Positions 24,682-64,000 of a stretch of DNA of 64,000 nt are shown in pieces (within the stretch, counting starts at the first letter, position 1; each line of letters opens with the position of its first letter). Origin of the DNA: a virus (lineage: Duplodnaviria; Caudoviricetes); the IMG/VR virus record IMGVR_UViG_3300025450_001231. One strand, 5' to 3'. The notes under the pieces were generated by a model that saw nothing but the letters and a program-made list of their open reading frames with translations, had not been told where the DNA came from and did no database searches. The translations under genes were made by a program, and so were the position numbers.

Positions 24682-25176
24682 ATGCCAGAAAATTTAGAAC
24701 TGTACATCGAAGTGCGGGACGGTAAGCCTTTTAATCATCCAATGTTAGGTAGCAATTTTCGAGAATGCTTCCCAGACATTGATGTTAATAACTTGCCTCC
24801 TCAATATGCTCGATTTGTTAGAATTACTCAAGCTGAAGCAAATCTGACTCCGGGATTTTACGAAGTAGTCGACGGGATATATGCGTGGAACGGTAATGCG
24901 TATACTGACGTTTGGTCTATACGTCCAATGACGCAAGAAGAAAAAGCAGAAAAAGTTGCCGAAGGAACAAGGGAATTGTTGGATTATGTCGAGCAATTAA
25001 CTGCGGCCGTTACTTCAGTTGCATCAGACGATGCTACTACACCGGAAGTAAAAACTATTTGCCAAAATTATCTAGTTCAATTGGCAAATTTTACATTTAC
25101 TGATCCAGACCCTAGGGTAACACAGATACCTCCTATACCTCCAGAAATTTTTCCCGAGCCTGATCCTAAAGAATAA
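24682..25176 (+). CDS. Small acidic soluble protein, putative fibre assembly chaperone
   Basis: 164 aa, rich in Glu/Asp/Pro, with a predicted helical C-half (EEKAEKVAEGTRELLDYVEQL). It has an SD-like AAGGA upstream and directly follows the largest shaft gene. The function is inferred from position and composition. Confidence 0.55.
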   Translation: MPENLELYIEVRDGKPFNHPMLGSNFRECFPDIDVNNLPPQYARFVRITQAEANLTPGFYEVVDGIYAWNGNAYTDVWSIRPMTQEEKAEKVAEGTRELLDYVEQLTAAVTSVASDDATTPEVKTICQNYLVQLANFTFTDPDPRVTQIPPIPPEIFPEPDPKE

Positions 25177-25207
25177 TTAACCATTCGATTAGTTTTTCCT
25201 ATATCGA

Positions 25208-25213
25208 TAAATA
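25208..25213 (+). promoter_or_regulatory. T4-late-type promoter core TAAATA
   Basis: gaTAAATA lies 7 nt before the ATG at 25221, with no SD. Confidence 0.6.
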
Positions 25214-32894: not shown

Positions 32895-35800
32895 ATGAGA
32901 ATATCAAGCATTTCTTACGTAGGAACCCATTTACCGAGACCATTATTGGTTGTAGTGATCTCTACTGGTTCATATAATTTTGCTTATGGGCAACCAGTTA
33001 GTGTAACACCGCTTACTGTAACCGGCGGAATTCCTCCTTATATATATTCGGCAAACACATTGCCGTCAGGACTTTCTATCGGTTCTTCTACTGGCACAAT
33101 CAGTGGAAAAGGTAATGCTCTAAGTGGAAATACTGCTTACCAAATTGTTGTTACTGACAGCACTCCAATTAAGCCACAAACATCAAATGCAAATATCTAT
33201 ATATCAATGGTTGCAACTGTACCTTGTGCACCTAGTATAGTATCTGCAACAGATGTTAATACAACTGCAGTTCAATTGATTTATACTGCACCAACTAACA
33301 ACGGTGGTTATCCAATTACCAGCTACATAGCAACAAGTAGTCCAGGTTCAATCCACGCAACATTAAGTACTGCAGGTAATGGAACCATGACGGTAACTGG
33401 TTTGACCACTGGTACTACTTATGCATTTACAGTGGCTGCGGTTAACAGTATTGGTACAGGACAACCTAGTGCGTGTAGTTCAAGTGTTTTGGTTGCTACT
33501 GTGCCAAATGTGGTAGTAGTTGGAACTCCTATCGTCAAACAAAATGTTGGAATGGCTATACCTTATACTGCGCCTAACAATAACGGTAGTGCTATTAGAT
33601 ACTTTGTAGCAAATGCAAATCCTGGCGGCATCACTGCAACTTTGAGTACTTCTAGTTCGGGCACAATTACTGTAACAGGATTGACCAAAGGTTCGTATTA
33701 TACATTCACAGTTACCGCAACAAATGGTGTAGGAACCAGTAATGTTAGTGCAAATACCGCTTGTAAACCATATGGTACAGTGCCCAATGCAGTTGTTATA
33801 TCAAATGTAGTACATATTAACAGTTCTCTTGGAAATACGGCCATCGGAGTTGTTTGGAATTTTGCAACCTGTTGCCATACTGGATTTACTCCTACGGCAA
33901 TTGTGGCAACAAGTCACCCAGGATGCCGAACAGCCACAGTAACAAGTTCAGCATCGCCCACAATTACAGTAACAGGATTAACTCCTGCTACTACATATTT
34001 TTTCACTGCATATGCAGTTAACGCAGTTGGACAAGGTTGTTGCAGTACACCTAGTGGATGTATCAACACCTACGGACCTCCAATTAGTCTAAGACAACCA
34101 ACAATAAACACCGTTATTCCTGGTGGATCCTATATTGTTGGCAACGCTATTCAAGTGGCGACTGGCGCTAATGTACCAAATTGTTGGTCGGCTTGTGGTC
34201 CCATTTTTGGTTGGACTTATCAATGGTTTAGATCTTGCGGTACATCATTAACTTCTAATCTTGCTCCTAGTACATATACTCCAGTATCCGGAGATGCTGG
34301 CAAGAACATTTATTTTGTACAAACAGCGGTAAGTTTATACGGATTCGGTAACACATCCGCTAATTCAAATTTAAGTCCTATTATTGGTTCTTCTAAGCCA
34401 CTCACTGCGCCTAATATTACCTCTGCAACTGGACAAGCTCCGTCGGGATATGCAAATATTACATTCACTGCTCCTACGTGTACTGGCGGTTCTACCATTA
34501 CTTCTTATGTGGTTCAAGAAAATCCGCAATCCGGAACTTGTCTTTCAACAAGATTTTCTACAATTAGTCAGTCTGGGGCAGGTACCATTACTATATCTGG
34601 ATTAATACCTGGAACAACATATAAATTTTATATTGCAGCAATTAATAGTTATGGTCAAGGACCATATAGCAATGCTAGTCCCTGTACGTTTACTTGGTAT
34701 TCGCCACAACTTAGTGCAAATCCAAGCATTGCTGGAACTGTTCGCAGCGGATCAACATTGACGGCAAACATAGGTACCTGGGCCAGCTATCCAGCAGCAA
34801 CATATGCTAATCAATGGTACAGGGGAAGTAGTGCTATTGGTGGAGCAACTGGGTCAACTTATGCGTTGACCAATTGTGATTTAGGATCAACAATAAAATT
34901 TCAAGTTACAGCCACAAATCCAATTGGTAGCAATGTAGCCCAAAGTCCGGCTACTGGAACAGTTCAGCCAGTACAGTTATCATTGACTGTTAACACAAGC
35001 GCATATAATTTTACAATAGGAAGTGCATATTCTTCTACTCCAGCAACAGCATCTGGAGGATTTGGCAACATAACATATGCAATTAGTGGAAATACATTGC
35101 CGACAGGATTAACTTTTTCCAATGCAGGTTTGTTGTATGGTACACTTACAGGAACGACTACACAAACAAATACTCAATATACCATAACTGCTACCTGTTC
35201 TTATTCAACTCCGCAACACGCAACAGGTACTATTGCTATAACAGTAAATGCCGCTCCACTTAGTGTTAGTTTCACTTGCAAAGGAACTTATAATCTTACA
35301 CTCAATCAATCTGCAGGTACAAATACCATAGTCAACTCGGTTAGCGGAGGTATACCTCCTTACTCGTATAGTGTATGTACTAGTCTGCCCACTGGTCTTA
35401 CTTTTGCCAATACTTATTTCTCAGGTACACCCACTGCGTTGCACTCACAATCTTTCTATGTATGGAAAGTCAGTGATAGTACTACCCCTACTGCGCAAAG
35501 TCAAACTCGTACCATAGGAATTGGTGTTTATCCAGCAGCATCAACAGTAACTTTTACTGCAGCAGGTACTTATACTTGGAGTGTTCCTAACGGAACAACT
35601 CAAGCAAGTGTTTTAGTAGTTGGCGGTGGTGGTGGCGGAGCAGGTAGCAATTGTTATCTTTCGCCTGGGGCAGGCGGAGGCGGAGCCGCTACTACAGTAT
35701 TAAATAATTTTACTGTAGCGTTTGGTCAAAATTATACAGGTCGAGTTGGTACACCAGGTTCTAAATTAGGAACTGCCGCACAAAGAACTGGGCAACCTTC

Positions 35801-36278
35801 ATACTTCAACGGTACAGGTTCAGGTAATGTAGTAGCCGGTGGTGGCGTTGGCGGTGGCATTGGCATAAACACTAAATCTGGTTCAGTTGGAGGCGGCGGT
35901 GGCGTTGGGCGCGGCAGTTGCGGTGGTGGTGGCGGTTGCGGTGGTACTGGAACCATCGGTGGCCGCGGCGGGGCCGGCGGAACAGGATCAGGGGGTACTA
36001 GCTATTCAGGAGGAGCCGGCGGATTTGCTTATAATACTTTTGTAGGTATAGCTTGCGGAGGAACCAATCCCTACGGTATGAACGGTGGAAAATCCGGACA
36101 ATATACTAACGCTGCAGCTACTAATGGTGTTGGGACGGCGTTAACTATATCTCCCACTACTGGGCCTTACGGTTTTGGTGGCGCTGGTCAAACAGCTAAA
36201 GGTTCGGGCGGCAGTTGCGGCGGAGGCGGAGCAGTAATGATTATATACGGAGGCGCTGGGTGTAACACTATAACTTAG
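32895..36278 (+). CDS. Ig/FN3 multidomain protein with glycine-rich C-terminal domain (cassette gene C2), Cys-rich
   Basis: 1127 aa. It has putative-Ig motifs (LPSGLSIGSSTGTISG, LPTGLTFS), about four FN3-like units (TYAFTVAAVN.IG), Ig-like units (TLTANIGTW...YANQWYRG) and a C-terminal polyglycine domain like 3296. Confidence 0.8.
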   Translation: MRISSISYVGTHLPRPLLVVVISTGSYNFAYGQPVSVTPLTVTGGIPPYIYSANTLPSGLSIGSSTGTISGKGNALSGNTAYQIVVTDSTPIKPQTSNANIYISMVATVPCAPSIVSATDVNTTAVQLIYTAPTNNGGYPITSYIATSSPGSIHATLSTAGNGTMTVTGLTTGTTYAFTVAAVNSIGTGQPSACSSSVLVATVPNVVVVGTPIVKQNVGMAIPYTAPNNNGSAIRYFVANANPGGITATLSTSSSGTITVTGLTKGSYYTFTVTATNGVGTSNVSANTACKPYGTVPNAVVISNVVHINSSLGNTAIGVVWNFATCCHTGFTPTAIVATSHPGCRTATVTSSASPTITVTGLTPATTYFFTAYAVNAVGQGCCSTPSGCINTYGPPISLRQPTINTVIPGGSYIVGNAIQVATGANVPNCWSACGPIFGWTYQWFRSCGTSLTSNLAPSTYTPVSGDAGKNIYFVQTAVSLYGFGNTSANSNLSPIIGSSKPLTAPNITSATGQAPSGYANITFTAPTCTGGSTITSYVVQENPQSGTCLSTRFSTISQSGAGTITISGLIPGTTYKFYIAAINSYGQGPYSNASPCTFTWYSPQLSANPSIAGTVRSGSTLTANIGTWASYPAATYANQWYRGSSAIGGATGSTYALTNCDLGSTIKFQVTATNPIGSNVAQSPATGTVQPVQLSLTVNTSAYNFTIGSAYSSTPATASGGFGNITYAISGNTLPTGLTFSNAGLLYGTLTGTTTQTNTQYTITATCSYSTPQHATGTIAITVNAAPLSVSFTCKGTYNLTLNQSAGTNTIVNSVSGGIPPYSYSVCTSLPTGLTFANTYFSGTPTALHSQSFYVWKVSDSTTPTAQSQTRTIGIGVYPAASTVTFTAAGTYTWSVPNGTTQASVLVVGGGGGGAGSNCYLSPGAGGGGAATTVLNNFTVAFGQNYTGRVGTPGSKLGTAAQRTGQPSYFNGTGSGNVVAGGGVGGGIGINTKSGSVGGGGGVGRGSCGGGGGCGGTGTIGGRGGAGGTGSGGTSYSGGAGGFAYNTFVGIACGGTNPYGMNGGKSGQYTNAAATNGVGTALTISPTTGPYGFGGAGQTAKGSGGSCGGGGAVMIIYGGAGCNTIT

Positions 36279-36286
36279 TATAAATA
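36279..36286 (+). promoter_or_regulatory. T4 late promoter consensus TATAAATA
   Basis: Exact 8-mer directly after the stop of 32895, 20 nt before the ATG at 36307. Confidence 0.7.
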
Positions 36287-42635: not shown

Positions 42636-42643
42636 AAATACGA

Positions 42644-42649
42644 TAAATA
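42644..42649 (+). promoter_or_regulatory. T4-late-type promoter core TAAATA
   Basis: gaTAAATA lies 21 nt before the ATG at 42671. Confidence 0.6.
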
Positions 42650-51300: not shown

Positions 51301-51336
51301 TTTTATACCACAACAACCGAATATTTAATAAAATAA

Positions 51337-51342
51337 TAAATA
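51337..51342 (+). promoter_or_regulatory. T4-late-type promoter core TAAATA
   Basis: 7 nt before the ATG at 51350. Confidence 0.55.
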
Positions 51343-51349
51343 CTGTACT

Positions 51350-54300
51350 ATGTCCAGACTATCATCCGTATCATCATCCGTAGGTGGCTCAACTTCAACT
51401 GCTGCAGCAACCAACCAAAATGTCGCCGTTCTCGCAACTAACCCTCCGAGTAACTTAATACCGCCCTCGATTACAGGAACAGCTCAGGTTAATCAAACTT
51501 TAACTGCTAACGTAGGAACTTGGAGCGCAAATACTATTAGTTATGCATATCAGTGGGTCAATAGCGGAACTGGAAATATTAATTCTGCTACAAATTCTAC
51601 TTATACTGTACAAACTACAGATTTGGGTTATACACTGGACTGTATAATTATTGCAACAAATTCATATGGAAATTCGTCAACTGCATCAAATCTATCATCT
51701 GCAGTGGTACCAGGCGTACCATTAGCACCAACAATTGGAACTGCTACAGACATAGACGGTAGTTCTGCAACAGTTAGCTTTACTGCACCAACCAACAATG
51801 GTGGTGCAACAATTACCAAGTATGTAGCAACTGCAAACGTAGGAGGAGTTACTTCTACAATAACTCAAGCGGGTTCTGGAACTATTACAGTAACTGGATT
51901 ATCGGTTGCAACTTCTTACACATTCACTGTAGCCGCAGTAAACAGCGTTGGTACAAGCCCATCAAGCAGTCAGAGTAATGCTATTACCACTGGCGCGAAA
52001 CCTTGTGCCCCGACTATCGGCAGCGCAAGTGAATTGACACCAACATCTGCTGCAGTATCCTATACTGCACCAACTTTCAACGGCGGAAGTACAATATTGT
52101 ACTATACTGCTACTGCAAATGTAGGCGGAATTACTGCTACACTAAGCACATCAAGCTCAGGTACAATTACTGTAACTGGACTAACAACCGGCAACAGCTA
52201 CACATTCACAGTTACTGCTACCAATAGCATTGGCACAAGTAACGCCAGTGCAGCAAGTAACAGCCTAACAGAAGCTACCGCACCAGGTGTACCAACTAGT
52301 GTAACTGCTACCGCTACAGGAGCAAATACAGCTAATGTAGCATATACTGCACCAATTAGCAATGGCGGCATTGCAATTAACTACTATGTAGCTACAAGCA
52401 ATGTTGGAAATATAACTGCTACATTAAGTACTTCTACATCAGGTACAATTAATGTAACTGGATTGACATCGGGTGCTAGCTATACATTCACAGTTAAAGC
52501 TTCTAATTCATATGCTACAAGTAATGCCAGCGCAGCAAGTAATGGAATTACAGAGTGGACAGTGCCTGCAGCACCAACTATTGGAACAGCTACTGCCACA
52601 AGTGCAAATACTGCTAACTTAACATATACTGCACCAGTGAACAACGGTGGAACTACAATTACTAGCTATGTAGCTACAAGCAATGTTGGTGGAATCACTG
52701 CTACATTAAGCACATCCAGCTCGGGCACATTCTCAATAACTGGATTGACATCAGGTGCCAGCTATACATTCACAGTTACTGCCATCAATAGCGTTGGAAC
52801 AAGTAATGCCAGTGCCGCAAGTAACGGAATTACAGAGTGGGCTGTACCAGGAGCACCAACAATTGGAAATGCAACAGTAGCCAATGCTACTGCAGTAAGT
52901 GTGGCATATACTGCACCAGCAAGCAACGGTGGCACTGCAATATTGTACTATACTGCCAGCAGCAATATTGGTAATATAACTGCTACACTAAGCACAACTA
53001 GCTCGGGTACTATTACTGTAGCGGGATTGACAACAAATGTTTCTTACACATTCACAGTTACTGCTACTAATACTGTTGGAACTGGCAATTCAAGTGCTGC
53101 AAGTAATACAGTAACTCCAGTTGTTAATAACGGACCTTGCGCACCAATAATTGGATATGTTGCCGCAACTAGTGCCAATTCAGCAATAGTAACATACACT
53201 GCACCTGCAAGTAACAATGGTGCTACAATCAGTAGTTACATAACAACAAGTAATGTCGGCGGAATTACTGCTACAGTAAGCACTTCAACATCAGGCACTA
53301 TTACAGTAACTGGCTTGACTTCCGGCACTTATTACTCATTTACAGTACAAGCAGTTAATGCAAACGGCACCAGTGCAGCAAGTGCAGCCAGCGCTCCGAT
53401 CGCTCCAGGAGTGGGATACTTATGGGTATGGGGAGGACAAAATAACGTAGGGCAATTGGGTACAAACAATCAAACAGTATACTCTAGTCCTGTACAATTA
53501 GGTGCAGGTAGTAACTGGAAAATGGAAAGTATTACCGACAGTGCCAGTGGAGCTGTTAAATTTGATGGAACTCTCTGGACCTGGGGTTATAATAACTATG
53601 GTATGTTAGGTCTGTCTAATACAACTAGCTATTCTAGTCCAAAACAAGTCGGTGCATTAACCAATTGGAGTTCAGTAATTACTCGATTTAATACTGTTAC
53701 TGCACTTAAAACTGACGGAACGATATGGGCTTGGGGCTACGGTGGTCTTGGTGCTTTAGGTCTAAACAACCTTACTAGTTATTCAAGTCCAAAACAAGTC
53801 GGCGCATTGACAAACTGGACTGCTATTTCCACAGACGGTTATACAACGTTTGCTATTAATTCATTAGGCCAATTGTGGGTGTGGGGTAATAATGGTAATG
53901 GCCAGCTAGGATTAAATAATGCCAATAATTATTCAAGTCCTAAACAAATCGGCACATCAACTAATTGGAAACAAATGTCCACATATAATGCTTCGGTTAT
54001 TGGACTTAAAACCGACGGAACTATATGGAGCTGGGGCAATAACAATTGGGGGCAACTAGGATTAAATAATTCTTTTCAGACTTATAGTAGTCCAGTACAA
54101 GTTGGTACACTAACTAACTGGAAACAGGTCATTATGAATAATTCTGTTGGAGGTGGAACTAAAACCGACAATACATTATGGATGTGGGGTTATAATGGTA
54201 CTGGCCAATTGGGATTAAATAATGTTAATAATTATTCAAGTCCAAAACAAGTCGGCTTGTCTACTTCATGGGCATTGTTAACCCCATCTTTCAATGTTAC

Positions 54301-57300
54301 TGGAACATTTGCAACACAAAATGATGGTACATTATGGACCTGGGGATATGGTGTTCCTGCAGGTGCATTAGGTTTAGGTGTTGCTACTAGTTATAGCAGT
54401 CCTAAACAAATAGGTTCGTCGGCTGGATGGGTATCGATATTTGGTAATGGTGGTACTAGAATAGTAAGTGCTGTTGCACCTTCCGTACCTAACCTGACAG
54501 CTACTGTAGTCGGCGGAGTTGGAGTGGCAGTTGGTGTAAAATTTGGAAATGTTACCGGTGCTGCCGGCGGCATTACCACTGTGGTCACAAGTAACCCAGG
54601 TGGAATTACTGCAACTTTAACCACTAGTTCATTATATGGTACAGTTACAGTAACTGGATTAACACTCAATACATCATACTCATTTACAGCCGTGGCAACA
54701 AATGCCATAGGATCAAGTAATACAAGTGCTGCAACTTCCTCCGTTTACTATGCTAATACAGCACCTTGTGTTCCAACAATTAATAGCGCCGTACAAGTTG
54801 ATACAAATACTGCAGGAGTTACTTACTTTGCACCGCTAAACAATGGCGGACAACCAATATTATACTATACTGCTACAAGCAGTCCAGGTGGAATTACTGC
54901 GACATTGAGTCAGTCAGGTAGTGGAACAATTACAATAGCAGGTTTAACAACAAATGTTTCTTATACATTCACAGTTACTGCTACCAATAGTATCGGCACA
55001 AGTAATGCTAGCCCAGCTAGCCCCAACTTAACTATAGTAACTACTACAGTACCTGGTACACCAACAGTTACTGCAACACAAACTGCAGCAAATACTGCAG
55101 TAGTTTCGTTTACACAACCTACTAACGGTAATGCTACAATACAGTACTATACAATTGTTGGATCGTCTTCGTCGTATACTGCTACACTAAGCCAGTCTGG
55201 CGCAGGTACTGTTACAGTAACCGGTTTAGCTACCGCTACTCCGTATACATTCACAGTTACTGCTACTAACTCAGTTGGTGCTGGCACTGGCGGTACCAGC
55301 AGCGGATTAACACTAGGAACTCCGCAATTCTTATGGTCGTGGGGTTGCGGTACTGCTTCAGGTATAGGTGTTTCAACAAATTATAGTAGCCCAGTTCAAG
55401 CTGGTAGTGCGCTAAATTGGAATATGATAGTCGGTAGTAGTGGTACTCAAACATCTGCAGGTATCAAACAAGATGGTACATTGTGGATGTGGGGCTACAA
55501 CACCTACGGACAATTAGGATTATCCGCAACAGGAACGGTTCTTAATATTACTCAAGTTGGTGCACTTACCAATTGGAAACAAGTTGCAGTTGGACCAACT
55601 GAGACTATTGCTGTAAAAACCGACGGTACATTGTGGAGTTGGGGACAAGCTCTTAACGGGCAGTTAGGTCTGAACACCAGCATTCTTAATAACTATTCTA
55701 GTCCAAAACAAATCGGTGCAGGAACAAATTGGGCATTTGCGTCAATGGGATCACAACACGCACTTGCAATTCAAACCAATGGTACATTGTGGACTTGGGG
55801 ACAAAACAACTATGGACAACTAGGATTGAATAATACTTCAACTTACAGTAGTCCAAAGCAAGTTGGAGCATTAACCAATTGGTTGAAGGCATCTGCGGCC
55901 GGTTACAATGTGGTCGCACTTAAAACCGACGGAACATTATGGGCCTGGGGAATTGGTACTAGTTATCAGCTAGGTCGAGGAAATACTTCTTCTTATATTA
56001 GTCCAAAACAAGTTGGTGCATTGACTACTTGGGCATCTTTTGCGAATGGATGGCAGTTTGTATTGGCTACTAAAACCGACGGAACATTGTGGAGTTGGGG
56101 AACTGGCTCATACGGACAATTAGGATTGAATAGTACATCGGCCGCTTCAAGTCCAACACAAGTTGGTACAGGAACAAATTGGAGCGTATTTAACCCAAAT
56201 CAAGGTGAAAATCTTCAACAGTACATGACTGCAACGAAGACCGACGGAACATTATGGAGTTGGGGACGTAATTATCAAGGTGCATTGGGACTAAATCAGT
56301 CAACAATCACATTGTACTCAAGTCCAAAGCAAGTTGGTTCATTAACTACTTGGCTCAGTACAGACGGTACTTCGGCCTTGGCAACAGTGCCAGCTGGTGC
56401 ACCTTCAGCGCCAGCAGTTAGTAACGTTGCAGTTATCTCAGGAGTAGGAGTAGGCGTAACATATACAGTTCCTGCAAGCACCAACGGATCGGCAATTATA
56501 AAATATATTGCAACTAGTACCCCAGGTGGAATTACAGCCACAGTAACTCAAGCAACTGCTGGTACAATTACAGTAACTGGATTAACTGGTGGAGCAACTT
56601 ACACATTTACTGTTACTGCAGTCAACGGAGGGGGCGGCAACACTAGTGTAGCATCCGGTAACGTAACTTATACTGCAATTGCACCATCTGCACCTGCTGC
56701 AGTCACTGCAAATGTAATAAGTCCAAATACTGCAACAGTAAGCTTTACTGCACCTTCTTCTAGCGGTGGGGCACAAATACTTGGTTATATAGTTTCTTCT
56801 ATTAATTCAAGTACTATTTCAAGTGTTACTTTAGCACAATCATTCCCAGGTACTGTTACTTTAACTGGTTTGACAAACGGCACCACATATACATTCTCTG
56901 TAGCTGCATTTAACGGTAGTGCAACTGGACTAGCCACTAGTGCTAATGCTAGTGTTGGTGCACCAGGCATACCAACAATAGGTACAGCGGTTTCTATGGG
57001 TACAACAACTGCTAATGTATCATTTACTGCACCAATTAACACTGGTGGTTACCCAATTACCAGCTATGTGGCTACAAGTAGTCCAGGTGGAATCACTGCT
57101 ACATTGAGCCAAGCAGGCGCTGGAACTATTACTATAACCGGTTTGTCTTCAAGCACTTACTATTCATTTGCAGTACAAGCTGTTAACAGCTATGGAACTA
57201 GTAATGTTAGTGCTTCGAGTAATAGCATATATACTCAAGGAAAACCGTATGCACCTATTATTGGTACAGCAACTGTATTAGGAAATTCTTCAGCGGTAGT

Positions 57301-60300
57301 TACATACTGTGCACCAACATTTAACGGTGGATTTGCAATTACCAGCTATGTGGCTACAAGTAGTCCAGGTGGAATCACTGCTACATTGAGCCAAGCAGGC
57401 GCTGGAACTATTACTATAACTGGATTAACAACAAATACTGCTTATACATTTACAGTGCAAGCTGTTAACAGCTATGGAGCTGGTCCTATAAGTGGCTCAA
57501 CTCCTAAAGTAACACCAATTAACTCTTACTTGTGGACCTGGGGACCCGGTACCTACGGTAGTAATGCATTAAATAATATTCTTTCATATTCAACTCCAAG
57601 GCAAGTCGGCGCACTTTCTGGATGGCTTCAAGTATCCGGTAGTTACGGATGGAATGGAGCAGCTATTAAAGCCGACGGAACATTATGGACCTGGGGGTAT
57701 AATGTTACGGGAGGCCTTGGGTTAAGTAACATTATCAATTACTCAAGTCCCAAACAAGTTGGTGCATTGACCAATTGGGCACAGATCGCAATGACCCCTA
57801 ACGGTGTTGCTGCAATTAAAACTGACGGAACCTTGTGGACCTGGGGATACAACAGTTTTTATCAGCTGGGTCTAAGTAATAGTACTTGGTATTCAAGTCC
57901 AAAACAAGTTGGTGCATTAACCAATTGGAAATCAGTATCTATGGGTAATATGGCCATGGCAGCTGTTAAAACAGACGGTACACTATGGACGGTAGGCAAT
58001 AACACCTATGGTGGTCTAGGTCTGGGCGACACTACTTATAGAAAGAGTCCTACTCAAGTCGGTTTACTAACTAATTGGTTACAGGTTGCGGCATCCGGTT
58101 ATCATGTGCTAGGATTAAAGACAGATGGCACGTTCTGGGGTTGGGGTGCTCAAAGCGGATGGGGTATAATTGGTGTTAGCGGTACAGGCGCATATTCTAG
58201 TCCAAAACAAGTTGGTGCATTAACCAATTGGAAAACATTTGGCACAACCAATTCTGCTGCTTTTGGTATTAAAACAGATGGTACACTTTGGAGTTGGGGC
58301 CTTAACTCTAGTGGTCAATTGGGATTAAATAACCTTACATCATATTCTAGTCCAAAACAAGTTGGTTCATTAACCAATTGGAAATCGGTAACAAACGACA
58401 TAGGAAGCAGTAATAATAATGCTCCGTCTTTTGTGACTGCTGTAAAAACTGATGGTACTCTTTGGTCTTGGGGAGCAGGCACAAGCGGGTATTTGGGATT
58501 AGGCAATGTAACTGGATATAGTTCACCAAAACAAATCGGCTCGAGTACTTCTTGGATTATGGCATCAGGATCGATGGCTATTAGTTCGTCACCGGCGGGA
58601 CCAGCAGCTGCACCAACTATAGGTGCAGCTACAAATGTTACTGGGGTAGGCGTTACAGTAGCATATACTGCAAGTTCAAGCGATAACGGATCGGCAATTA
58701 CAAGTTATGTTGCAACTAGTACCCCAAGCGGAATTACTGCTACAGTAACTCAAACAACATCAGGTACGATTACAGTAACTGGATTAACAACTGGAACTAG
58801 TTATACGTTTACAGTTGCCGCAGTTACTGGTGCAGGTCTTGGTAATGCCAGTGCATCATCTAGCGCAGTTACATATCTAGCAAATGCACCATCAGCACCA
58901 ACAGGTGTTACAGCCAATGCAATATCATTAACTAGTGCTACAGTTGCATTTACTGCACCTGCAAACGGCGGATCGCCGATCTTGAGTTACAAACTTGCTG
59001 GTGCACCGGGATGTATTGCTGCCACAATAAGTCAGGCTACATCAGGTACATTTACTATATCAGGATTAACTACTGGTACTAGATACTCATTTACAGTAGC
59101 TGCAACAAATGGAGCAGGAACAAGTACTAATTCTTCAGCAAGCTCAATTAGTTTAGGCGTACCTTGCGTACCTACTGGAGTAACTGGAACACCAACTGGT
59201 TCGTCTACTGCTACAGTAAGCTATATTGCACCAGCTAGTAATGGCGGAACACCGATTACAAATTATGTTGCAACTGCAAATGTAGGCGGAATTACTGCTA
59301 CTGTAACACAAGCATCTTCTGGTACAATTACAGTAACTGGATTGGGAACAAAAGCTTCTTACACATTCACAGTTACTGCAATTAACAGTTACGGAACAAG
59401 TAATGCAAGTACCCCAACCGGTACAGTAACTACATTTGGCGTACCTTGTGCACCAGTTATTTGCGGAGCTATACCAATTCTTGGCGCAACTTCTGCGGCA
59501 GTTATATATACTGCTCCTGCCAATGGCGGTTCACCGATTACAAAATATGTTGCAACTGCAAATGTAGGCGGAATTACTGCTACATTAAGTCAAGCAGGAT
59601 CGGGTACAGTTACTGTATCTGGCTTGACAAACGGCACATACTATTCGTTCACACTACAAGCAATTAATATTGCAGGCACAAGCTCATCGAGCTCACCAAG
59701 TGGTGCAGTTGCTCCAGGTGTCGGCTATTTGTGGAGTTGGGGTCAAAACAACTACGGGCAGACCGGTTCCAATGCTTTAGTAACTTATTCTAGTCCTGTA
59801 CAAATAGGTGCCGGTAGTAATTGGAAAATGGTATCTGTTGGTTCATGTTTTAGTAGCGCAGCTATCAAATTTGATGGAACATTATGGACCTGGGGATATA
59901 ATGGTCAAGGAAACTTGGGATTCAGTAATAAAACAAATTATTCTAGTCCAAAACAAGTCGGTGCATTAACTAATTGGAGTACAGTAGTTATGCGTACTAA
60001 TAATGCTACTGCAATTAAAACTGACGGAACATTGTGGACTTGGGGTTACAATGGTGGCTATGATTTAGGATTAGGCAATGGTACATATTATTCAAGTCCT
60101 AAACAGGTTGGCGCACTAACTACTTGGAGTTCAGTAGATTCAGACGGTAGCACTACAGTAGCTATCAAAACTGACGGAACAATATGGGCTTGGGGTCAGG
60201 GCGGTAACGGACAAATTGGAGTAAGTACTACAGCAAATTACAGTAGTCCAAAACAAATCGGTGTATTAACTAATTGGAAACAAGTTTCTGTCAATGATGC

Positions 60301-62689
60301 AGCTGTTTTTGCAATTAAAACCGACGGCACACTGTGGGCTTGGGGTAATAATTACACTGGTCTATTAGGACTAAACTCACAAACAGCTAACTATAGTAGT
60401 CCAAAACAAGTTGGTGCATTGACTAACTGGGGCCAATTACAAATTTCTGGATCTTCTTCAGGTAGTTCAACTGGCGCAATTAAAACTGACGGAACATTGT
60501 GGACTTGGGGCACTGGCGTTAACGGTGCTTTGGGTCTAAACAACCTTACTAGTTATTCAAGTCCAAAACAAGTCGGCGCATTGACAAATTGGCTTCAACT
60601 TGCTTCTTTAAGCCAAGTTGTATTAGGAATGGTTGCAATCAAGAATAACGGAACAATGTGGTCTTGGGGTACTAATAGTGCACCTGGTCGCTTGGGATTG
60701 AATAATGCTACTAGCTATTCAAGTCCAAAACAAATTGGTGCAGGAACAACTTGGACATATGTTGCAGGAACTATGGCTCTTGGTATCGCTACAGGATCTC
60801 TACCTCCTTGCGCTCCTAGTATAAGTGCTACAAATGTTGGCGGAGTTGGCGTAGCAATAACAGCCAACGCAGTAGTCAATAACGGAAGTCCAACTAAGGT
60901 AGTGGTCACTAGTACACCAGGCGGGCTAACTGCAACATTCACTGCACTAGGCGGAACAGTTACAATAACCGGATTTACATCGGGCACAACATATACATTT
61001 ACTCCAGTTGCAACTAATAGCTTCGGATCTACCACTGGTTCAAATAGTTTAGCAACTTATTCTGCAGTATTACCAGGTGCACCTGGTATTGGTTTAGCCA
61101 AGGCAATCACATTGTGTAGTGCAACTGTAATATTTGGCTCGCCAAGTAACGGCGGAAGCCCAATACTGTACTACACTGCCACAAGTAATCCAGGTAGTGT
61201 GACTGGTACACTAAGTCAGGCAGGCAGCGGAACAATCACTGTAACTGGTTTGACCGCAGGTACTAGATACACATTCACAGTTACTGCAACTAACGCAATT
61301 GGCACTGGTAATTCCAGTACACCTACAACATCAATCAGTGTTGGTGCACCATGTGCTCCAACTATCTGCACAGCAACCGCAACAACTACAACAGCAAATG
61401 TACCGTATACTGCACCGATAAACAATGGTGGATCAACAATTACAAGTTATGTAGCTACAAGTAATCCAGGTGGTGTGACTGGTACACTAAGTCAGGCAGG
61501 CAGCGGAACAATTTCTGTTTCTGGATTGTCAGTAGGGGGTAGTTACACATTCACAGTTGTTGCTGTCAACAGTTATGGAACTAGTAACGCAAGTGCTAAT
61601 AGTAACAGTGTAAGTATACCGTTAACACAAGGTAACTTATATATTTGGGGTAGTGCTGCTTCCGGCCAGTTAGGTCTAAACAATGCAACAGCATATTCGA
61701 CTCCTGTACAGGTTGGAGGTAGTAATACTTGGGCACAAACAATTTTAGCAGGTAACTGTCACTCATTTGCGTTAGATTCAGCTGGACATTTGTGGGCGTG
61801 GGGTCTAAATAGTTCTGGACAGTTAGGTTTAGCTAATACAACTAATTATTCAAGTCCGAAACAAGTTGGCTCAAATACTTGGAAAGTAATTGCCGGCGGT
61901 GACGCTTTTACAATCGGTATTACAACCAGCGGAGCACTGTTTAGTTGGGGTACACAATCTCAGGGACAATTAGGGTTAAACACTACTTCGGGTACTTATA
62001 ATAGTCCAAAACAAATCGGCGCATTGACTACTTGGTTGACAGTATCATCCGGACAATACATGACGCAAGCTCTTAAAACTGACGGTACATTATGGTTTTG
62101 GGGAGACGGCCGATTCTATGGACAAAGCGGACTCGGATTCCTAGGCAGTGTTTCTAGTCCTATCATGGTTGGCGGAGTGAATACTTGGAAATCTGTTAGC
62201 GTAAATTATTTCCACGTTGCAGCAATTCAAACCAATGGAACTTTGTGGACTTGGGGATTTGGCGGCTTTGGTGAAGGCGGCAGAGGAGTTACCGGAAACA
62301 CATCTAGTCCCCAACAGGTTGGTTCTTTGACCAATTGGGCACAGGTAGCATCTGGCAGAGATCACATAATTGCAGTCAAGACTGACGGAACATTATGGTC
62401 GTTTGGATACGGCTATGGCGGCGTACTAGGATTAGGTAATACTACAAGTTACTCAAGTCCCAAACAAGTAGGAGCATTAACTACTTGGAAAGCAGTTGCT
62501 GCTTCGTCAAATGGATATAACAGCTATGCAACAACAGGCACTGCATTATATGCTTGGGGAAATAACGGCAACAGTGTATTGGGAATCGGTAATGCTACTA
62601 GCTATAGTTCACCAAAACAAGTCGGATCTGCAACTCAATGGATTGGTGTATCTGCAGGACCAAATTCTGCAGCAGGTATTCATATATAA
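51350..62689 (+). CDS. Giant (3779 aa) FN3 + RCC1/BLIP-II-like beta-propeller protein
   Basis: One N-terminal Ig-like unit and about 20 FN3-like units (YTFTVTA.N..G). Five blocks of seven RCC1-like repeats (KTDGTLW.WG....LG.....YSSPKQVGALTNW) lie at ~53415-54445, 55330-56370, 57525-58570, 59725-60770 and 61630-62689. Confidence 0.88.
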   Translation: MSRLSSVSSSVGGSTSTAAATNQNVAVLATNPPSNLIPPSITGTAQVNQTLTANVGTWSANTISYAYQWVNSGTGNINSATNSTYTVQTTDLGYTLDCIIIATNSYGNSSTASNLSSAVVPGVPLAPTIGTATDIDGSSATVSFTAPTNNGGATITKYVATANVGGVTSTITQAGSGTITVTGLSVATSYTFTVAAVNSVGTSPSSSQSNAITTGAKPCAPTIGSASELTPTSAAVSYTAPTFNGGSTILYYTATANVGGITATLSTSSSGTITVTGLTTGNSYTFTVTATNSIGTSNASAASNSLTEATAPGVPTSVTATATGANTANVAYTAPISNGGIAINYYVATSNVGNITATLSTSTSGTINVTGLTSGASYTFTVKASNSYATSNASAASNGITEWTVPAAPTIGTATATSANTANLTYTAPVNNGGTTITSYVATSNVGGITATLSTSSSGTFSITGLTSGASYTFTVTAINSVGTSNASAASNGITEWAVPGAPTIGNATVANATAVSVAYTAPASNGGTAILYYTASSNIGNITATLSTTSSGTITVAGLTTNVSYTFTVTATNTVGTGNSSAASNTVTPVVNNGPCAPIIGYVAATSANSAIVTYTAPASNNGATISSYITTSNVGGITATVSTSTSGTITVTGLTSGTYYSFTVQAVNANGTSAASAASAPIAPGVGYLWVWGGQNNVGQLGTNNQTVYSSPVQLGAGSNWKMESITDSASGAVKFDGTLWTWGYNNYGMLGLSNTTSYSSPKQVGALTNWSSVITRFNTVTALKTDGTIWAWGYGGLGALGLNNLTSYSSPKQVGALTNWTAISTDGYTTFAINSLGQLWVWGNNGNGQLGLNNANNYSSPKQIGTSTNWKQMSTYNASVIGLKTDGTIWSWGNNNWGQLGLNNSFQTYSSPVQVGTLTNWKQVIMNNSVGGGTKTDNTLWMWGYNGTGQLGLNNVNNYSSPKQVGLSTSWALLTPSFNVTGTFATQNDGTLWTWGYGVPAGALGLGVATSYSSPKQIGSSAGWVSIFGNGGTRIVSAVAPSVPNLTATVVGGVGVAVGVKFGNVTGAAGGITTVVTSNPGGITATLTTSSLYGTVTVTGLTLNTSYSFTAVATNAIGSSNTSAATSSVYYANTAPCVPTINSAVQVDTNTAGVTYFAPLNNGGQPILYYTATSSPGGITATLSQSGSGTITIAGLTTNVSYTFTVTATNSIGTSNASPASPNLTIVTTTVPGTPTVTATQTAANTAVVSFTQPTNGNATIQYYTIVGSSSSYTATLSQSGAGTVTVTGLATATPYTFTVTATNSVGAGTGGTSSGLTLGTPQFLWSWGCGTASGIGVSTNYSSPVQAGSALNWNMIVGSSGTQTSAGIKQDGTLWMWGYNTYGQLGLSATGTVLNITQVGALTNWKQVAVGPTETIAVKTDGTLWSWGQALNGQLGLNTSILNNYSSPKQIGAGTNWAFASMGSQHALAIQTNGTLWTWGQNNYGQLGLNNTSTYSSPKQVGALTNWLKASAAGYNVVALKTDGTLWAWGIGTSYQLGRGNTSSYISPKQVGALTTWASFANGWQFVLATKTDGTLWSWGTGSYGQLGLNSTSAASSPTQVGTGTNWSVFNPNQGENLQQYMTATKTDGTLWSWGRNYQGALGLNQSTITLYSSPKQVGSLTTWLSTDGTSALATVPAGAPSAPAVSNVAVISGVGVGVTYTVPASTNGSAIIKYIATSTPGGITATVTQATAGTITVTGLTGGATYTFTVTAVNGGGGNTSVASGNVTYTAIAPSAPAAVTANVISPNTATVSFTAPSSSGGAQILGYIVSSINSSTISSVTLAQSFPGTVTLTGLTNGTTYTFSVAAFNGSATGLATSANASVGAPGIPTIGTAVSMGTTTANVSFTAPINTGGYPITSYVATSSPGGITATLSQAGAGTITITGLSSSTYYSFAVQAVNSYGTSNVSASSNSIYTQGKPYAPIIGTATVLGNSSAVVTYCAPTFNGGFAITSYVATSSPGGITATLSQAGAGTITITGLTTNTAYTFTVQAVNSYGAGPISGSTPKVTPINSYLWTWGPGTYGSNALNNILSYSTPRQVGALSGWLQVSGSYGWNGAAIKADGTLWTWGYNVTGGLGLSNIINYSSPKQVGALTNWAQIAMTPNGVAAIKTDGTLWTWGYNSFYQLGLSNSTWYSSPKQVGALTNWKSVSMGNMAMAAVKTDGTLWTVGNNTYGGLGLGDTTYRKSPTQVGLLTNWLQVAASGYHVLGLKTDGTFWGWGAQSGWGIIGVSGTGAYSSPKQVGALTNWKTFGTTNSAAFGIKTDGTLWSWGLNSSGQLGLNNLTSYSSPKQVGSLTNWKSVTNDIGSSNNNAPSFVTAVKTDGTLWSWGAGTSGYLGLGNVTGYSSPKQIGSSTSWIMASGSMAISSSPAGPAAAPTIGAATNVTGVGVTVAYTASSSDNGSAITSYVATSTPSGITATVTQTTSGTITVTGLTTGTSYTFTVAAVTGAGLGNASASSSAVTYLANAPSAPTGVTANAISLTSATVAFTAPANGGSPILSYKLAGAPGCIAATISQATSGTFTISGLTTGTRYSFTVAATNGAGTSTNSSASSISLGVPCVPTGVTGTPTGSSTATVSYIAPASNGGTPITNYVATANVGGITATVTQASSGTITVTGLGTKASYTFTVTAINSYGTSNASTPTGTVTTFGVPCAPVICGAIPILGATSAAVIYTAPANGGSPITKYVATANVGGITATLSQAGSGTVTVSGLTNGTYYSFTLQAINIAGTSSSSSPSGAVAPGVGYLWSWGQNNYGQTGSNALVTYSSPVQIGAGSNWKMVSVGSCFSSAAIKFDGTLWTWGYNGQGNLGFSNKTNYSSPKQVGALTNWSTVVMRTNNATAIKTDGTLWTWGYNGGYDLGLGNGTYYSSPKQVGALTTWSSVDSDGSTTVAIKTDGTIWAWGQGGNGQIGVSTTANYSSPKQIGVLTNWKQVSVNDAAVFAIKTDGTLWAWGNNYTGLLGLNSQTANYSSPKQVGALTNWGQLQISGSSSGSSTGAIKTDGTLWTWGTGVNGALGLNNLTSYSSPKQVGALTNWLQLASLSQVVLGMVAIKNNGTMWSWGTNSAPGRLGLNNATSYSSPKQIGAGTTWTYVAGTMALGIATGSLPPCAPSISATNVGGVGVAITANAVVNNGSPTKVVVTSTPGGLTATFTALGGTVTITGFTSGTTYTFTPVATNSFGSTTGSNSLATYSAVLPGAPGIGLAKAITLCSATVIFGSPSNGGSPILYYTATSNPGSVTGTLSQAGSGTITVTGLTAGTRYTFTVTATNAIGTGNSSTPTTSISVGAPCAPTICTATATTTTANVPYTAPINNGGSTITSYVATSNPGGVTGTLSQAGSGTISVSGLSVGGSYTFTVVAVNSYGTSNASANSNSVSIPLTQGNLYIWGSAASGQLGLNNATAYSTPVQVGGSNTWAQTILAGNCHSFALDSAGHLWAWGLNSSGQLGLANTTNYSSPKQVGSNTWKVIAGGDAFTIGITTSGALFSWGTQSQGQLGLNTTSGTYNSPKQIGALTTWLTVSSGQYMTQALKTDGTLWFWGDGRFYGQSGLGFLGSVSSPIMVGGVNTWKSVSVNYFHVAAIQTNGTLWTWGFGGFGEGGRGVTGNTSSPQQVGSLTNWAQVASGRDHIIAVKTDGTLWSFGYGYGGVLGLGNTTSYSSPKQVGALTTWKAVAASSNGYNSYATTGTALYAWGNNGNSVLGIGNATSYSSPKQVGSATQWIGVSAGPNSAAGIHI
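57054..57420 (+). repeat. Exact 85-bp duplication between adjacent FN3 units
   Basis: 57054-57138 is identical to 57336-57420, while the flanks diverge. Confidence 0.85.
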
Positions 62690-62711
62690 TTGAATACTGT
62701 TTCAATTCAAG

Positions 62712-62744
62712 ATTTATAACCTGTAGCGATACAGGTTATAAATA
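62712..62744 (+). promoter_or_regulatory. 14-bp perfect hairpin (GCGA loop) whose 3' arm contains the late promoter TATAAATA (62737-62744)
   Basis: ATTTATAACCTGTA-GCGA-TACAGGTTATAAAT. The ATG follows 5 nt after the box. Confidence 0.7.
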
Positions 62745-62749
62745 TTTGT

Positions 62750-64000
62750 ATGAAAAAAACACTACACTTCTTATCGGGAATCCCCCGCAGCGGATCTACG
62801 GTTTTGGCCGCTATATTAAACCAAAATCCTGCTACTCATGTGTCGACTACGTCTGGGCTAGTTCATGCACTTGACGGTTTAGCAAATACTTGGTTCAGTC
62901 AAGGATTGCTTAACGAAAATGACCCTAACCGAACAAAACTAGCAGAAACAATGCGTGGAATGATCGATGCATTCTACGAAGATACTGATAAAAAAATAGT
63001 AATTGACAAAGGCAGAGGTTGGCCTATACCTGTTATTATGCAGGCGATGACACAGGTCTTAGGGGCCAAACCTAAAATTATTGCCACAGTTCGTCCAGTT
63101 CCTGATTGTATGGCTAGTTTTGTTAGAGTCGCAAAACCCAAAGACCTTGATATGTTTATGTATGAAGGCCAATTAGCTGATCATCTAAGAGCAGCCTACA
63201 TCAGTTTACAAACAGGGTATGAAGCAATGCCCGAATGTTTTTTATTTGTAGAATACGACAAATTAATTGCCGATCCTAAAAAAGAACTGCAACGAATACA
63301 TAAGTTTTTAGGACTTAAACCATTCAAATACAATTTTAGTAATATTGATGGATCCACTGTAAAAGAAGACGACGAAAATCTACACGGTTACGAAGGTATG
63401 CACGATATTAAACCAGCGCTAGCACGTCAACATACCGACGACCCAAAAGTAGTATTAAGTTACCATTACAATCAATTTTGCCAGCCAGAATTTTGGAGTG
63501 ACGGTAAAAGAACTACTCCGACCTTAGATGATCTAGACCTTCAAGTAGCTGCAGGAAAAATCGGAGATTTTGCCGAAGGATGGCGATTAGCACAAAAATT
63601 AGAAAAAGAAAGACCTGGCGATCATAGAGCTGCGTACAACAAAAGTTGGTATCTGCTTAGACAAGGGAAAATACTCGAAGGCTATACTGTCATGAATCGA
63701 GGACGTTTTTGTGGTATTATTGGAGATAGACTTCCAGACACACCTGCACCAGAATGGGATGGAAAATCTAAAGGTACAATATTATTGTACTGTGATCATG
63801 GATTAGGCGACCAAATACATCAAGTTAGGTATGCAAAAGACTTAGCTGCACGTGGCAATAAAGTTGTTGTATGTTGCACTGGTATGTTAGCTAGTTTATT
63901 CAAAGATGTCGAAGGAGTTAGCGCAGTAGTACAACATGGTGCAGAATTTGGTGTTTATCACGATTTTTGGACATTTGCTATGGTAGCTCCGGGCCTATTA
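62750..64000 (+). CDS. Sulfotransferase-domain + TPR-like + glycosyltransferase (GT9-like) fusion, 3'-truncated
   Basis: Hand translation gives 417 open codons. MKKTLHFLSGIPRSGSTVLAAILNQNP is the PAPS 5'-phosphosulfate loop, VRPVPDCMAS the R-x7-S 3'-phosphate motif, followed by VEYDKLIADP. Then come a helical segment (AEGWRLAQKLEKE..AAYNKSWYLLRQG) and EWDGKSKGTILLYCDHGLGDQIHQVRY, which resembles the W.G...ILL..EQGLGD.IQF.RY motif of TPR-GT9-like proteins. Confidence 0.82.
   Translation, partial: MKKTLHFLSGIPRSGSTVLAAILNQNPATHVSTTSGLVHALDGLANTWFSQGLLNENDPNRTKLAETMRGMIDAFYEDTDKKIVIDKGRGWPIPVIMQAMTQVLGAKPKIIATVRPVPDCMASFVRVAKPKDLDMFMYEGQLADHLRAAYISLQTGYEAMPECFLFVEYDKLIADPKKELQRIHKFLGLKPFKYNFSNIDGSTVKEDDENLHGYEGMHDIKPALARQHTDDPKVVLSYHYNQFCQPEFWSDGKRTTPTLDDLDLQVAAGKIGDFAEGWRLAQKLEKERPGDHRAAYNKSWYLLRQGKILEGYTVMNRGRFCGIIGDRLPDTPAPEWDGKSKGTILLYCDHGLGDQIHQVRYAKDLAARGNKVVVCCTGMLASLFKDVEGVSAVVQHGAEFGVYHDFWTFAMVAPGLL

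Follow-up and report, generated by a model that had tools for sequence, protein, structure and literature searches.

Five RCC1-like propellers on a fibronectin type III chain: a candidate virion fibre with exchangeable heads in a freshwater giant phage

Human RCC1 and RPGR, the RCC1-like domains (RLDs) of HERC1 and HERC2, and Arabidopsis UVR8 share a common design, in which seven repeats of ~50 amino acids (aa), each with a W.WG..GQLG signature, fold into a seven-bladed propeller. The same repeats, signature and fold recur in a protein of 3779 aa encoded on the + strand at 51350..62689 of a 64,000-nucleotide (nt) stretch of DNA, hereafter the window, from IMG/VR virus record IMGVR_UViG_3300025450_001231 (Duplodnaviria; Caudoviricetes). 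Whereas the eukaryotic RLDs are single intracellular domains in which ~20% of residues are charged, here five copies (P1 to P5) are carried on a chain of fibronectin type III (FN3) domains, and the protein is nearly uncharged. Guanine nucleotide exchange and chromatin binding, known from RCC1 proper, are not general to the family, and neither they nor a role as an exchange factor for Ran would be expected of a nearly uncharged phage protein of extracellular type. Our preferred reading, to which we would assign a probability of roughly 0.55, is that it is a late-expressed, virion-exposed and probably monomeric fibre with exchangeable, multivalent binding heads.

Among phages, RCC1 propellers in multiple paralogous copies are found in the Rak2-like jumbo phages (GAP32 gp1; phAPEC6 gp003 and gp005, with nine paralogues; 121Q; PBECO4). 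Stand-alone RCC1-like proteins have been identified by mass spectrometry as virion components of GAP32 (PMC5259590) and of phAPEC6 (PMC7247149), both of them jumbo phages with hairy appendages. The Rak2-group propellers adopt the same fold in BFVD (K4F6B8, L7TJ61) and are related to the present ones at the level of the fold only; they are separate proteins of ~380 aa, whereas here the propellers are joined in one chain with FN3 spacers. BFVD also contains the fold in T7-tail-fibre-N fusions of the Pseudomonas phages PollyC and Littlefix. A literature search for a characterised function of phage RCC1 proteins found none, and the “RCC1” of a prasinovirus paper turned out to denote culture-collection strain numbers rather than a protein. 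The protein described here belongs to both the RCC1-like and the FN3 families and, as a phage protein, is of a known but uncharacterised kind; what is new is the fusion of four to five heads on long FN3 runs, together with the evidence for head exchange.

The open reading frame (ORF) is stop-free over its 3779 codons, and the encoded protein, from a giant phage of freshwater (lake-water) origin, has a mass of 378 kDa, a pI of 9.1 and a 3.7% share of charged residues, Glu occurring only 8 times over its entire length. In five regions Pfam recognizes RCC1-like domains, through PF25390 (WD40_RLD; E 3e-259, 859 bits against a cut-off of 150) and 28 stretches of PF00415 (RCC1; 642 bits, cut-off 21.7), and it finds 18 stretches of PF00041 (fn3; 463 bits, cut-off 25). 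Anchoring on W.WG resolves 35 blades, spaced by 50–58 aa, in five groups of seven, while anchoring on Y.F.V.A combined with alignment gives 20 FN3 units (F1 to F20) with a period of 92–96 aa, in runs of 6, 3, 4, 4 and 3. An earlier note on this DNA, made by reading the letters alone, had proposed the order Ig-FN3x6-P1-FN3x3-P2-FN3x4-P3-FN3x4-P4-FN3x3-P5 (Ig being an immunoglobulin-like domain), with seven repeats in every block and 35 in all; Pfam and the motif anchors return precisely that order, and the W.WG anchors exactly that count. The strict blade motif SP.Q(V/I)G is kept in 31 of the 35 blades, the four variants being SPVQLG, SPVQAG, NITQVG and SPIMVG. No collagen, coiled-coil or beta-helix segment was detected in the protein by Pfam, and no hydrophobic, signal-peptide-like stretch is seen in the sequence of the N-terminus (aa 1–38). 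Coordinates of all modules are collected in Table 1.

A structure model (AlphaFold), computed from an alignment that combined 108 propellers of stand-alone phage genes with the four paralogous segments, covers F6-P1-F7, so that P1 is the one propeller modelled of the five. Its mean predicted local distance difference test score (pLDDT) is 87.6, rising above 95 across the propeller, which comprises 28 strands. In Foldseek searches the P1 model matches HERC1 RLD3 and HERC2 RLD2 with template-modelling (TM) scores of 0.87–0.88 at a root-mean-square deviation (rmsd) of 2.1 Å, and RPGR, UVR8 and RCC1 as well, the RLD matches overall spanning TM 0.8–0.88 and rmsd 2.1–2.6 Å; a PDB sequence search agrees with RCC1-like domains (E 1e-31 to 1e-15). 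By DSSP of the model, each sequence repeat contributes four strands. Strand S1 (LWxWG) is followed by L12, a long loop of 14 aa after the WG (xNxxGQLGLNNxTx); S2 (YSSPKQV) by a short loop, L23 (GALTN); S3 (the blade Trp and 5–6 further residues) by L34, a hairpin of 2–12 aa that carries insertions; and S4 (xxAIK) by a short turn, L41 (TDGT).

Faces were assigned from the strand topology of an antiparallel meander and by alignment to UVR8. On this topology L12 and L34 should share one face, X, and L23 and L41 the other, Y. With S1 as its first strand and S4 as its last, the propeller would have both chain termini on the conserved face Y, and face X would point away from the FN3 chain. In the alignment, the GWRHT motif of UVR8 falls on L34; its Trp and Arg, together with Asp residues of the post-WG loops, make up the dimer and partner interface of UVR8, and face X would therefore be the canonical ligand face of the fold. 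It is to the variable face of the phage propellers that the partner-binding face of UVR8 corresponds.

That face X is the variable one emerges from a comparison of 113 propellers, in which mean column entropy is 2.29 bits for the face-X loops versus 1.31 for those of face Y (Mann-Whitney p 1.5e-8). Nearly all long, variable insertions and deletions also lie on face X, the one other frequent indel being a one-residue shift of register that recurs systematically where S2 meets L23. The hypervariable positions are occupied by Asn (20%), Gly (13.5%), Ser (13%), Thr (13%), Gln (7%), Ala (7%) and Tyr (6%), with fewer than 4% charged residues. Between the five propellers of the giant protein, 13–30% of hypervariable-loop residues are common at equivalent positions, versus 49–65% of scaffold residues; judged by these residues, there is effectively no relationship among the five outward faces. 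The picture drawn by the earlier note, of a near-constant scaffold with variable residues after the WG and after the blade Trp, rich in Asn, Ser, Gly and Tyr, thus stands (~60% Asn/Gly/Ser/Thr plus 6% Tyr), the topology adding that the two variable segments would form a single face. The note had looked to a structure model and face mapping as its check. The P1 model is confident and the variable residues fall on one face, as assigned by topology and the UVR8 alignment; the scatter over the fold that would have spoken against the idea is not seen on this assignment, the loops of face X having the higher entropy.

A second line of evidence comes from a sister strain. A metagenome scan with the N-terminus as query turned up two contigs, L114 and L115, and the strain of L115 is also represented by L082, which covers its 3' part. 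The orthologue is complete in L115, at 3140 aa, with four propellers (F6-P-F3-P-F5-P-F3-P). Positional orthology holds, P1, P2, P4 and P5 pairing with the sister propellers Q1, Q2, Q3 and Q4, respectively, and the degree of conservation differs from module to module (Table 1). Between the orthologous P1, P2 and P4, the face-X loops are 51% identical, the face-Y loops 83% and the strands 76%; in P4 alone the contrast is 47% for face X versus 83% for face Y (Fisher p 5e-8). By a crude test, the ratio of nonsynonymous to synonymous substitution rates (dN/dS) in these three propellers is 0.39 for face X, 0.13 for face Y and 0.19 for the strands. Toward the 3' end, a tract at ~61790-62800, comprising P5 blades 2–7, the intergenic sequence and the opening bases of the downstream sulfotransferase gene, is 97–99% identical to L082/L115, while the strains differ by 10–35% on both sides of it. 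Within the P5 blade 2–7 tract the proportion of synonymous differences (pS) is 0.017, versus 0.3–0.5 in the flanking modules and 0.34 in the adjacent sulfotransferase gene. This ~1-kb tract suggests recombination in the recent past, one limit of the exchange lying between P5 blades 1 and 2.

Taken from the alignments, the pattern is that of a recombination mosaic in which the stalk is fixed, propellers are replaced by diverged alleles or have recently been exchanged, and one unit has been gained or lost; the variation, so read, is at the level of modules and is not point-mutation hypervariation. A conserved proximal part with mosaic distal modules, as in receptor-binding proteins, is what this one comparison reveals. 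Diversity-generating retroelements (DGRs) offer a different route to variable faces. A reverse transcriptase domain is found in 0 of the 18 window genes, no dedicated search for template repeats having been made, and the divergence hits whole modules including their synonymous sites, unlike adenine-templated DGR variation. The likeness to an antibody or variable lymphocyte receptor surface that the earlier note had drawn consequently holds as an analogy only, since dN/dS is below 1 and the diversity resembles module replacement, not programmed hypermutation.

Modules are related within the protein too. The closest pair of propellers is P1/P4 at 60% aa identity (other pairs, 43–56%), and the FN3 units 3' of the propellers pair likewise, F7 with F18, F10 with F14 and F11 with F15, from which it follows that the units P1-F7 and P4-F18, and likewise P2-F10-F11 and P3-F14-F15, are real but old duplicates. 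The higher-order duplication claimed beforehand, on the strength of a GVGV motif in the first FN3 after each of P1–P4 (found in F7, F10, F14 and F18) and of the sequences APGVGYLW and KFDGTLWTWGYN common to P1 and P4 (also present as described), is upheld by the closeness of P1 to P4 and by the matching FN3 pairs. In DNA the repeats are 55–70% identical, and recent intragenic duplication or homogenization is rejected, propeller pairs being only 55–66% identical. The best local patches reach 89% over 79 nt (P1 blade 3 versus P4 blade 6) and 83% over 185 nt (F12 versus F13). The 79-nt patch (53742-53820 and 60516-60594) lies amid sequence of 60–70% identity and may reflect local gene conversion. 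Orthology by blade index between propellers is weak (37 of 140 best matches), the interior blades lying close to one consensus.

With a gene this repetitive, one may ask whether the count of five propellers is partly an artefact of assembly, the real gene having four propellers or another order. The sister-strain contig does carry four, no single contig from other runs spans the whole gene, and contigs break within the FN3 repeats. However, with repeats only 55–70% identical in DNA, and best patches of 83–89% over 80–185 nt, short-read collapse or chimerism is unlikely, and the sequence of P3 is distinct, at 52–57% identity to every other propeller. Moreover, pieces of the gene recur at 100% identity in contigs of four other freshwater runs, among them the junctions P1-F7-F9-P2, P2-F10-F12, F13-P3 and P3-F14-F15, the last two being reproduced in independent runs. 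Fragments of the same genotype are all identical; these runs otherwise gave short propeller pieces of other organisms, and many apparent “joints” in their reads and contigs were cross-matches between paralogous blades. We consider an artefactual count very unlikely.

The genomic setting is that of a fibre locus. All 18 large genes of the window lie on the + strand, and the ~50 kb upstream encode collagen-repeat, Laminin-G, Gly-rich, He_PIG and FN3 proteins with PHROG tail-fibre matches. Each large gene of this fibre block (window 1-62689, ~60 kb) encodes a product with 1.7–7.6% charged residues (D+E+K+R); for two non-fibre genes, 24682-25176 and the sulfotransferase gene, the figure is 24%. 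Such a region-wide near-absence of charge is unusual; one possible connection is with the low ionic strength of lake water, another with sulfation as a source of charge. The giant protein's Ig-like domain (aa 39–121) is 43% identical to aa 610–692 of the product of a neighbouring gene, 32895-36278. That product (1127 aa) has the same type of FN3 (38–49% identical) and an Ig-like domain, and ends in Gly_rich_2; judged by its sequence, it resembles a smaller fibre put together from the same parts. As for expression, the + strand of the window carries six copies of ATAAATA, the motif at the core of T4's late promoter (TATAAATA), and five of the six stand 5–21 nt before a gene start, all within 30 nt upstream (Table 1); the full octamer TATAAATA is depleted, with 2 occurrences observed versus 8 expected.

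These features bear on an intracellular, non-structural role, in which the protein would act on host or phage nucleic acid or on GTPases, as database labels imply. PHROG families for phage RCC1 proteins are indeed filed under DNA/RNA metabolism, and the authors of the phAPEC6 study speculated that RCC1-like proteins order DNA (PMC7247149). Yet the labels in question (“regulator of chromosome condensation”, “DNA condensation protein”) are inherited from eukaryotic RCC1, and the near-absence of charge in the phage protein (3.7% charged residues, pI 9.1) makes it unsuitable for DNA binding. Its 21 Ig/FN3 domains, its place in a block of fibre genes, its late-promoter-like motif and the evolution of its modules as a mosaic, as in receptor-binding proteins, argue in the same direction, and we regard an intracellular role as extremely unlikely.

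How widely is the module distributed? With the gene as query, megablast gave no match in 50,697 phage records, and tblastn of P1 against phage records gave four, at 37–42% identity, none of them from the Rak2 group. Among cultured relatives, Synechococcus phage S-SRM01 has propellers of the stand-alone kind. IMG/VR, by comparison, contains at least 109 propeller stretches at 37–54% identity, mostly as stand-alone genes of 380–420 aa that frequently lie in tandem, up to six or seven to an array; multi-propeller ORFs are few, an example being an ORF truncated at its 5' end, which has ~53 blades in at least 3840 aa. The protein database contains hundreds of RCC1 giants of 2–6 thousand aa, with up to 98 blades in a 5840-aa metagenome protein. 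Two proteins share the alternating FN3-propeller design. P0072 (4679 aa) likewise has a valence of five, each propeller being separated by one FN3, and P0108 (2291 aa) has three propellers and lies on a phage-like contig. Both have single FN3 spacers, in contrast to the runs of 3–6 seen here, 9–11% charged residues as opposed to 3.7%, and local identities of 30–40%; P0072, moreover, stands in a bacterial context (CysS, rhomboid) beside an RHS protein, unlike the phage gene. The earlier note's description of the protein as exceptional in size and valence is accordingly not borne out, given the ORF with ~53 blades, the 98-blade protein and the five propellers of P0072. On the contig of P0108 (L081, 4335-18790), genes resembling CsgF and CsgG of the curli secretion channel lie upstream of it and a CHASE2-guanylate cyclase gene follows.

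Synteny was examined with the downstream sulfotransferase gene as anchor, in 32 IMG/VR loci. In ~27 of them the sulfotransferase homologue comes immediately after one or two propeller genes of the stand-alone type; the fused giant form occurs in L082 only. The propellers of L083-L113 are true relatives (45–57% aa) at the same site before the same sulfotransferase gene (66–82% aa), encoded by one or two FN3-free genes of 375–390 aa, whereas the giant fused form is confined to this phage and its sister strain. Each stand-alone propeller gene begins with one of two conserved N-terminal peptides of 30–35 aa, and in L083-L113 the MSQRYLAGFIQAGLFNPLAAP type is found in one gene and the MPVIYPYVQYSGMWTPQSQMQAVAAGTW type in the other; in three loci (L096, L100, L112) the two are fused one after the other ahead of a single propeller. 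We regard both peptides as candidates for a docking role.

So constant a gene partnership raises the question of whether the propellers are mainly carriers of glycan or sulfate, added to their uncharged faces rich in Asn, Ser, Thr and Tyr by the adjacent sulfotransferase fusion and by APS-kinase-like (APS, adenosine 5'-phosphosulfate) and methyltransferase enzymes, such that the fibre would act through its coat (charge, colloidal stability, mimicry, or as a ligand for host lectins) rather than through binding sites of the protein. A scheme of this kind is compatible with an adhesin. Beyond the position of propeller genes directly before the sulfotransferase gene, it draws on L083, where the sulfotransferase gene is followed by genes for a third propeller, a methyltransferase and an APS-kinase-like protein, and on the scarcity of charged residues, Glu above all, in the giant protein. 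The ratio of N-x-S/T sequons to their mirror image S/T-x-N, 50:19 in the propellers and 1257:423 in 144 stand-alone relatives versus 43:52 in the FN3 part, would also be in keeping with N-glycosylation; but most of the excess comes from conserved blade motifs (N..T before YSSP, N-Y-S, N-W-S/T) and may for that reason be structural, so that we keep this real enrichment as a lead only. A pure carrier, on the other hand, would not need five different, module-swapped faces, and in the fusion gene Pfam saw only the sulfotransferase part, the modification itself being predicted. On balance we think it rather unlikely that carrying such groups is the main function.

We return, then, to a virion fibre with exchangeable heads, for which the fibre-gene block, the shared low charge, the ATAAATA motif, the mosaic evolution and the virion and tail-fibre precedents all speak. 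In the arrangement we envisage, the conserved N-terminal tail, the Ig-like domain and the first six FN3 units would form the proximal stalk and anchor, and the further FN3 runs would act as spacers. [quoted passage not shown] Because the five faces differ, up to five kinds of contact, weak or strong, could be offered to ligands of the host envelope (or of particles), most plausibly glycans or surface proteins, and such multiple contacts may raise avidity, widen the host range, or both. Specificity would evolve as recombination replaces, adds or removes entire propeller modules on a constant stalk. From 21 Ig-fold beads of ~3.5 nm we infer an extended fibre of roughly 75–90 nm; FN3 strings are usually monomeric.

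Several considerations weigh against this proposal. Virion location, oligomeric state, binding and ligands are all deduced from context, and the protein has no recognized anchor domain or trimerization motif. A dN/dS analysis, which the earlier note had suggested as a check across relatives, gives in the comparison with the sister strain no direct signature of positive selection, all site classes remaining below 1, the variable face (0.39) included, with dS saturated in P1, P2 and P4. Loops commonly vary more than strands, so that only the contrast of face X with face Y is informative. The linkage to sulfo- and glycosyl-transferase genes is constant, and the variable face could be a substrate for modification rather than a binding site. 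Finally, the comparison of orthologues involves one sister strain, whose four-propeller form is known from one spanning contig; two other contigs break in a 134-nt, 90%-identical FN3 repeat at the would-be P3 junction, a break attributable to the repeat itself.

RCC1-like proteins are common, and present in multiple copies, in jumbo and freshwater phages, where they are still annotated under chromosome or DNA condensation. The present locus supplies comparative evidence for behaviour like that of host-recognition proteins, in the form of a hypervariable face, a conserved stalk, and modules that are exchanged, gained or lost from one close strain to another, and the same module is met in two forms, as genes of its own and fused into a polyvalent chain. 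We would raise, tentatively and as a possibility short of even odds, the wider idea that RCC1-type propellers are a distinct, widespread and hitherto unrecognized class of phage receptor-binding heads, which would normally be separate 380-aa proteins docked by their N-terminal peptides, with sulfo-/glycosyl-transferases finishing the variable face, and which here would be welded by FN3 domains into a fibre of four to five specificities whose heads are swapped as cassettes between phages. Were RCC1-like proteins confirmed as host-recognition modules, a large protein family would be re-annotated, phage biology would gain a new receptor-binding fold, and a natural scaffold with several binding heads on one polypeptide would be at hand.

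Other phages have arrived at multivalency by different means. Branched multi-tailspike phages such as CBA120 and phi92 carry several receptor-binding units per appendage. The podophages A1002, GP4 and VP1 have chain-like fibres, in which units are strung along a rope-like protein (PMC13730344). In both of these designs the units are separate, non-covalently assembled proteins with non-RCC1 heads, whereas here all heads belong to one polypeptide. For the stalk, the nearest parallels are Hoc-type proteins of T4 and the giant adhesins of bacteria with their Ig-like stalks, in which strings of Ig-fold beads serve as exposed extenders; Hoc, however, is small and propeller-free, and the bacterial adhesins are secreted and anchored to the cell, unlike the protein described here.

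Table 1. Modules of the giant protein and associated features in the window, with aa identity to the sister-strain orthologue
Feature	Coordinates	Strand	Basis or remark	Identity to sister strain
N-terminal Ser/Thr/Ala-rich tail, aa 1-38; candidate virion anchor	51350..51463	+	Sequence	99% from tail to F5 (dS 0.04)
Ig-like domain, aa 39-121	51464..51712	+	Atlas feature search: phage/bacterial Ig-like clusters, score 0.95	As above
FN3 x6 (F1-F6), aa 124-686; putative proximal stalk	51719..53407	+	Pfam and motif anchors	F1-F5 as above; F6 90%
Propeller P1, aa 687-1043, seven RCC1 blades	53408..54478	+	Motif anchors, structure model	64% (dS 1.1)
FN3 x3 (F7 GVGV-type, F8, F9)	54479..55318	+	Motif anchors	85%
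Propeller P2, aa 1324-1684	55319..56401	+	Motif anchors	73% (dS 1.05)
FN3 x4 (F10 GVGV-type, F11-F13)	56402..57517	+	Motif anchors	F10-F11 69%; F12-F13 no orthologue (best matches of F12-F15 and P3 are paralogues, 52-67%)
Propeller P3, aa 2057-2418	57518..58603	+	Without counterpart in the 3140-aa orthologue	No orthologue
FN3 x4 (F14 GVGV-type, F15-F17)	58604..59716	+	Motif anchors	F14-F15 no orthologue; F16-F17 85%
Propeller P4, aa 2790-3148; highly diverged module	59717..60793	+	Orthologue comparison	66% (dS 0.85); DNA of blades 3-6 62-70%
FN3 x3 (F18 GVGV-type, F19, F20)	60794..61618	+	Motif anchors	82%
Propeller P5, aa 3424-3779 and stop codon; C-terminal head	61619..62689	+	Motif anchors	94% (blades 2-7 98%)
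Sulfotransferase fusion gene, start	62750..64000	+	Pfam Sulfotransfer_3/_1; conserved downstream partner of propeller genes	
ATAAATA, T4-late-promoter-like, 8 nt upstream of the ATG (gene start 51350)	51336..51342	+	Motif scan	
ATAAATA, gene start 25221	25207-25213	+		
ATAAATA, gene start 36307	36280-36286	+		
ATAAATA, gene start 42671	42643-42649	+		
ATAAATA, gene start 62750	62738-62744	+		

Two smaller observations concern the FN3 chain. Cysteines occur at aa 219, 597, 1140, 2606, 2700, 3154, 3335 and elsewhere; of the 16 in the protein, seven belong to a P-C-(A/V)-P motif within the first residues of an FN3 unit, and two further ones stand five residues after this motif (VIC, TIC), inter-domain disulfides being one possibility. 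The stalk also recurs under a different head: a 1079-aa protein found in two further contigs (L117, 8391-11627, and L116) has an FN3/Ig stalk 52% identical to aa 13–330 of the giant protein and ends in about eight repeats of 45 aa (YGGDKAIFGFG...TNLVSNTGVVA), which form a repeat head that has no name.

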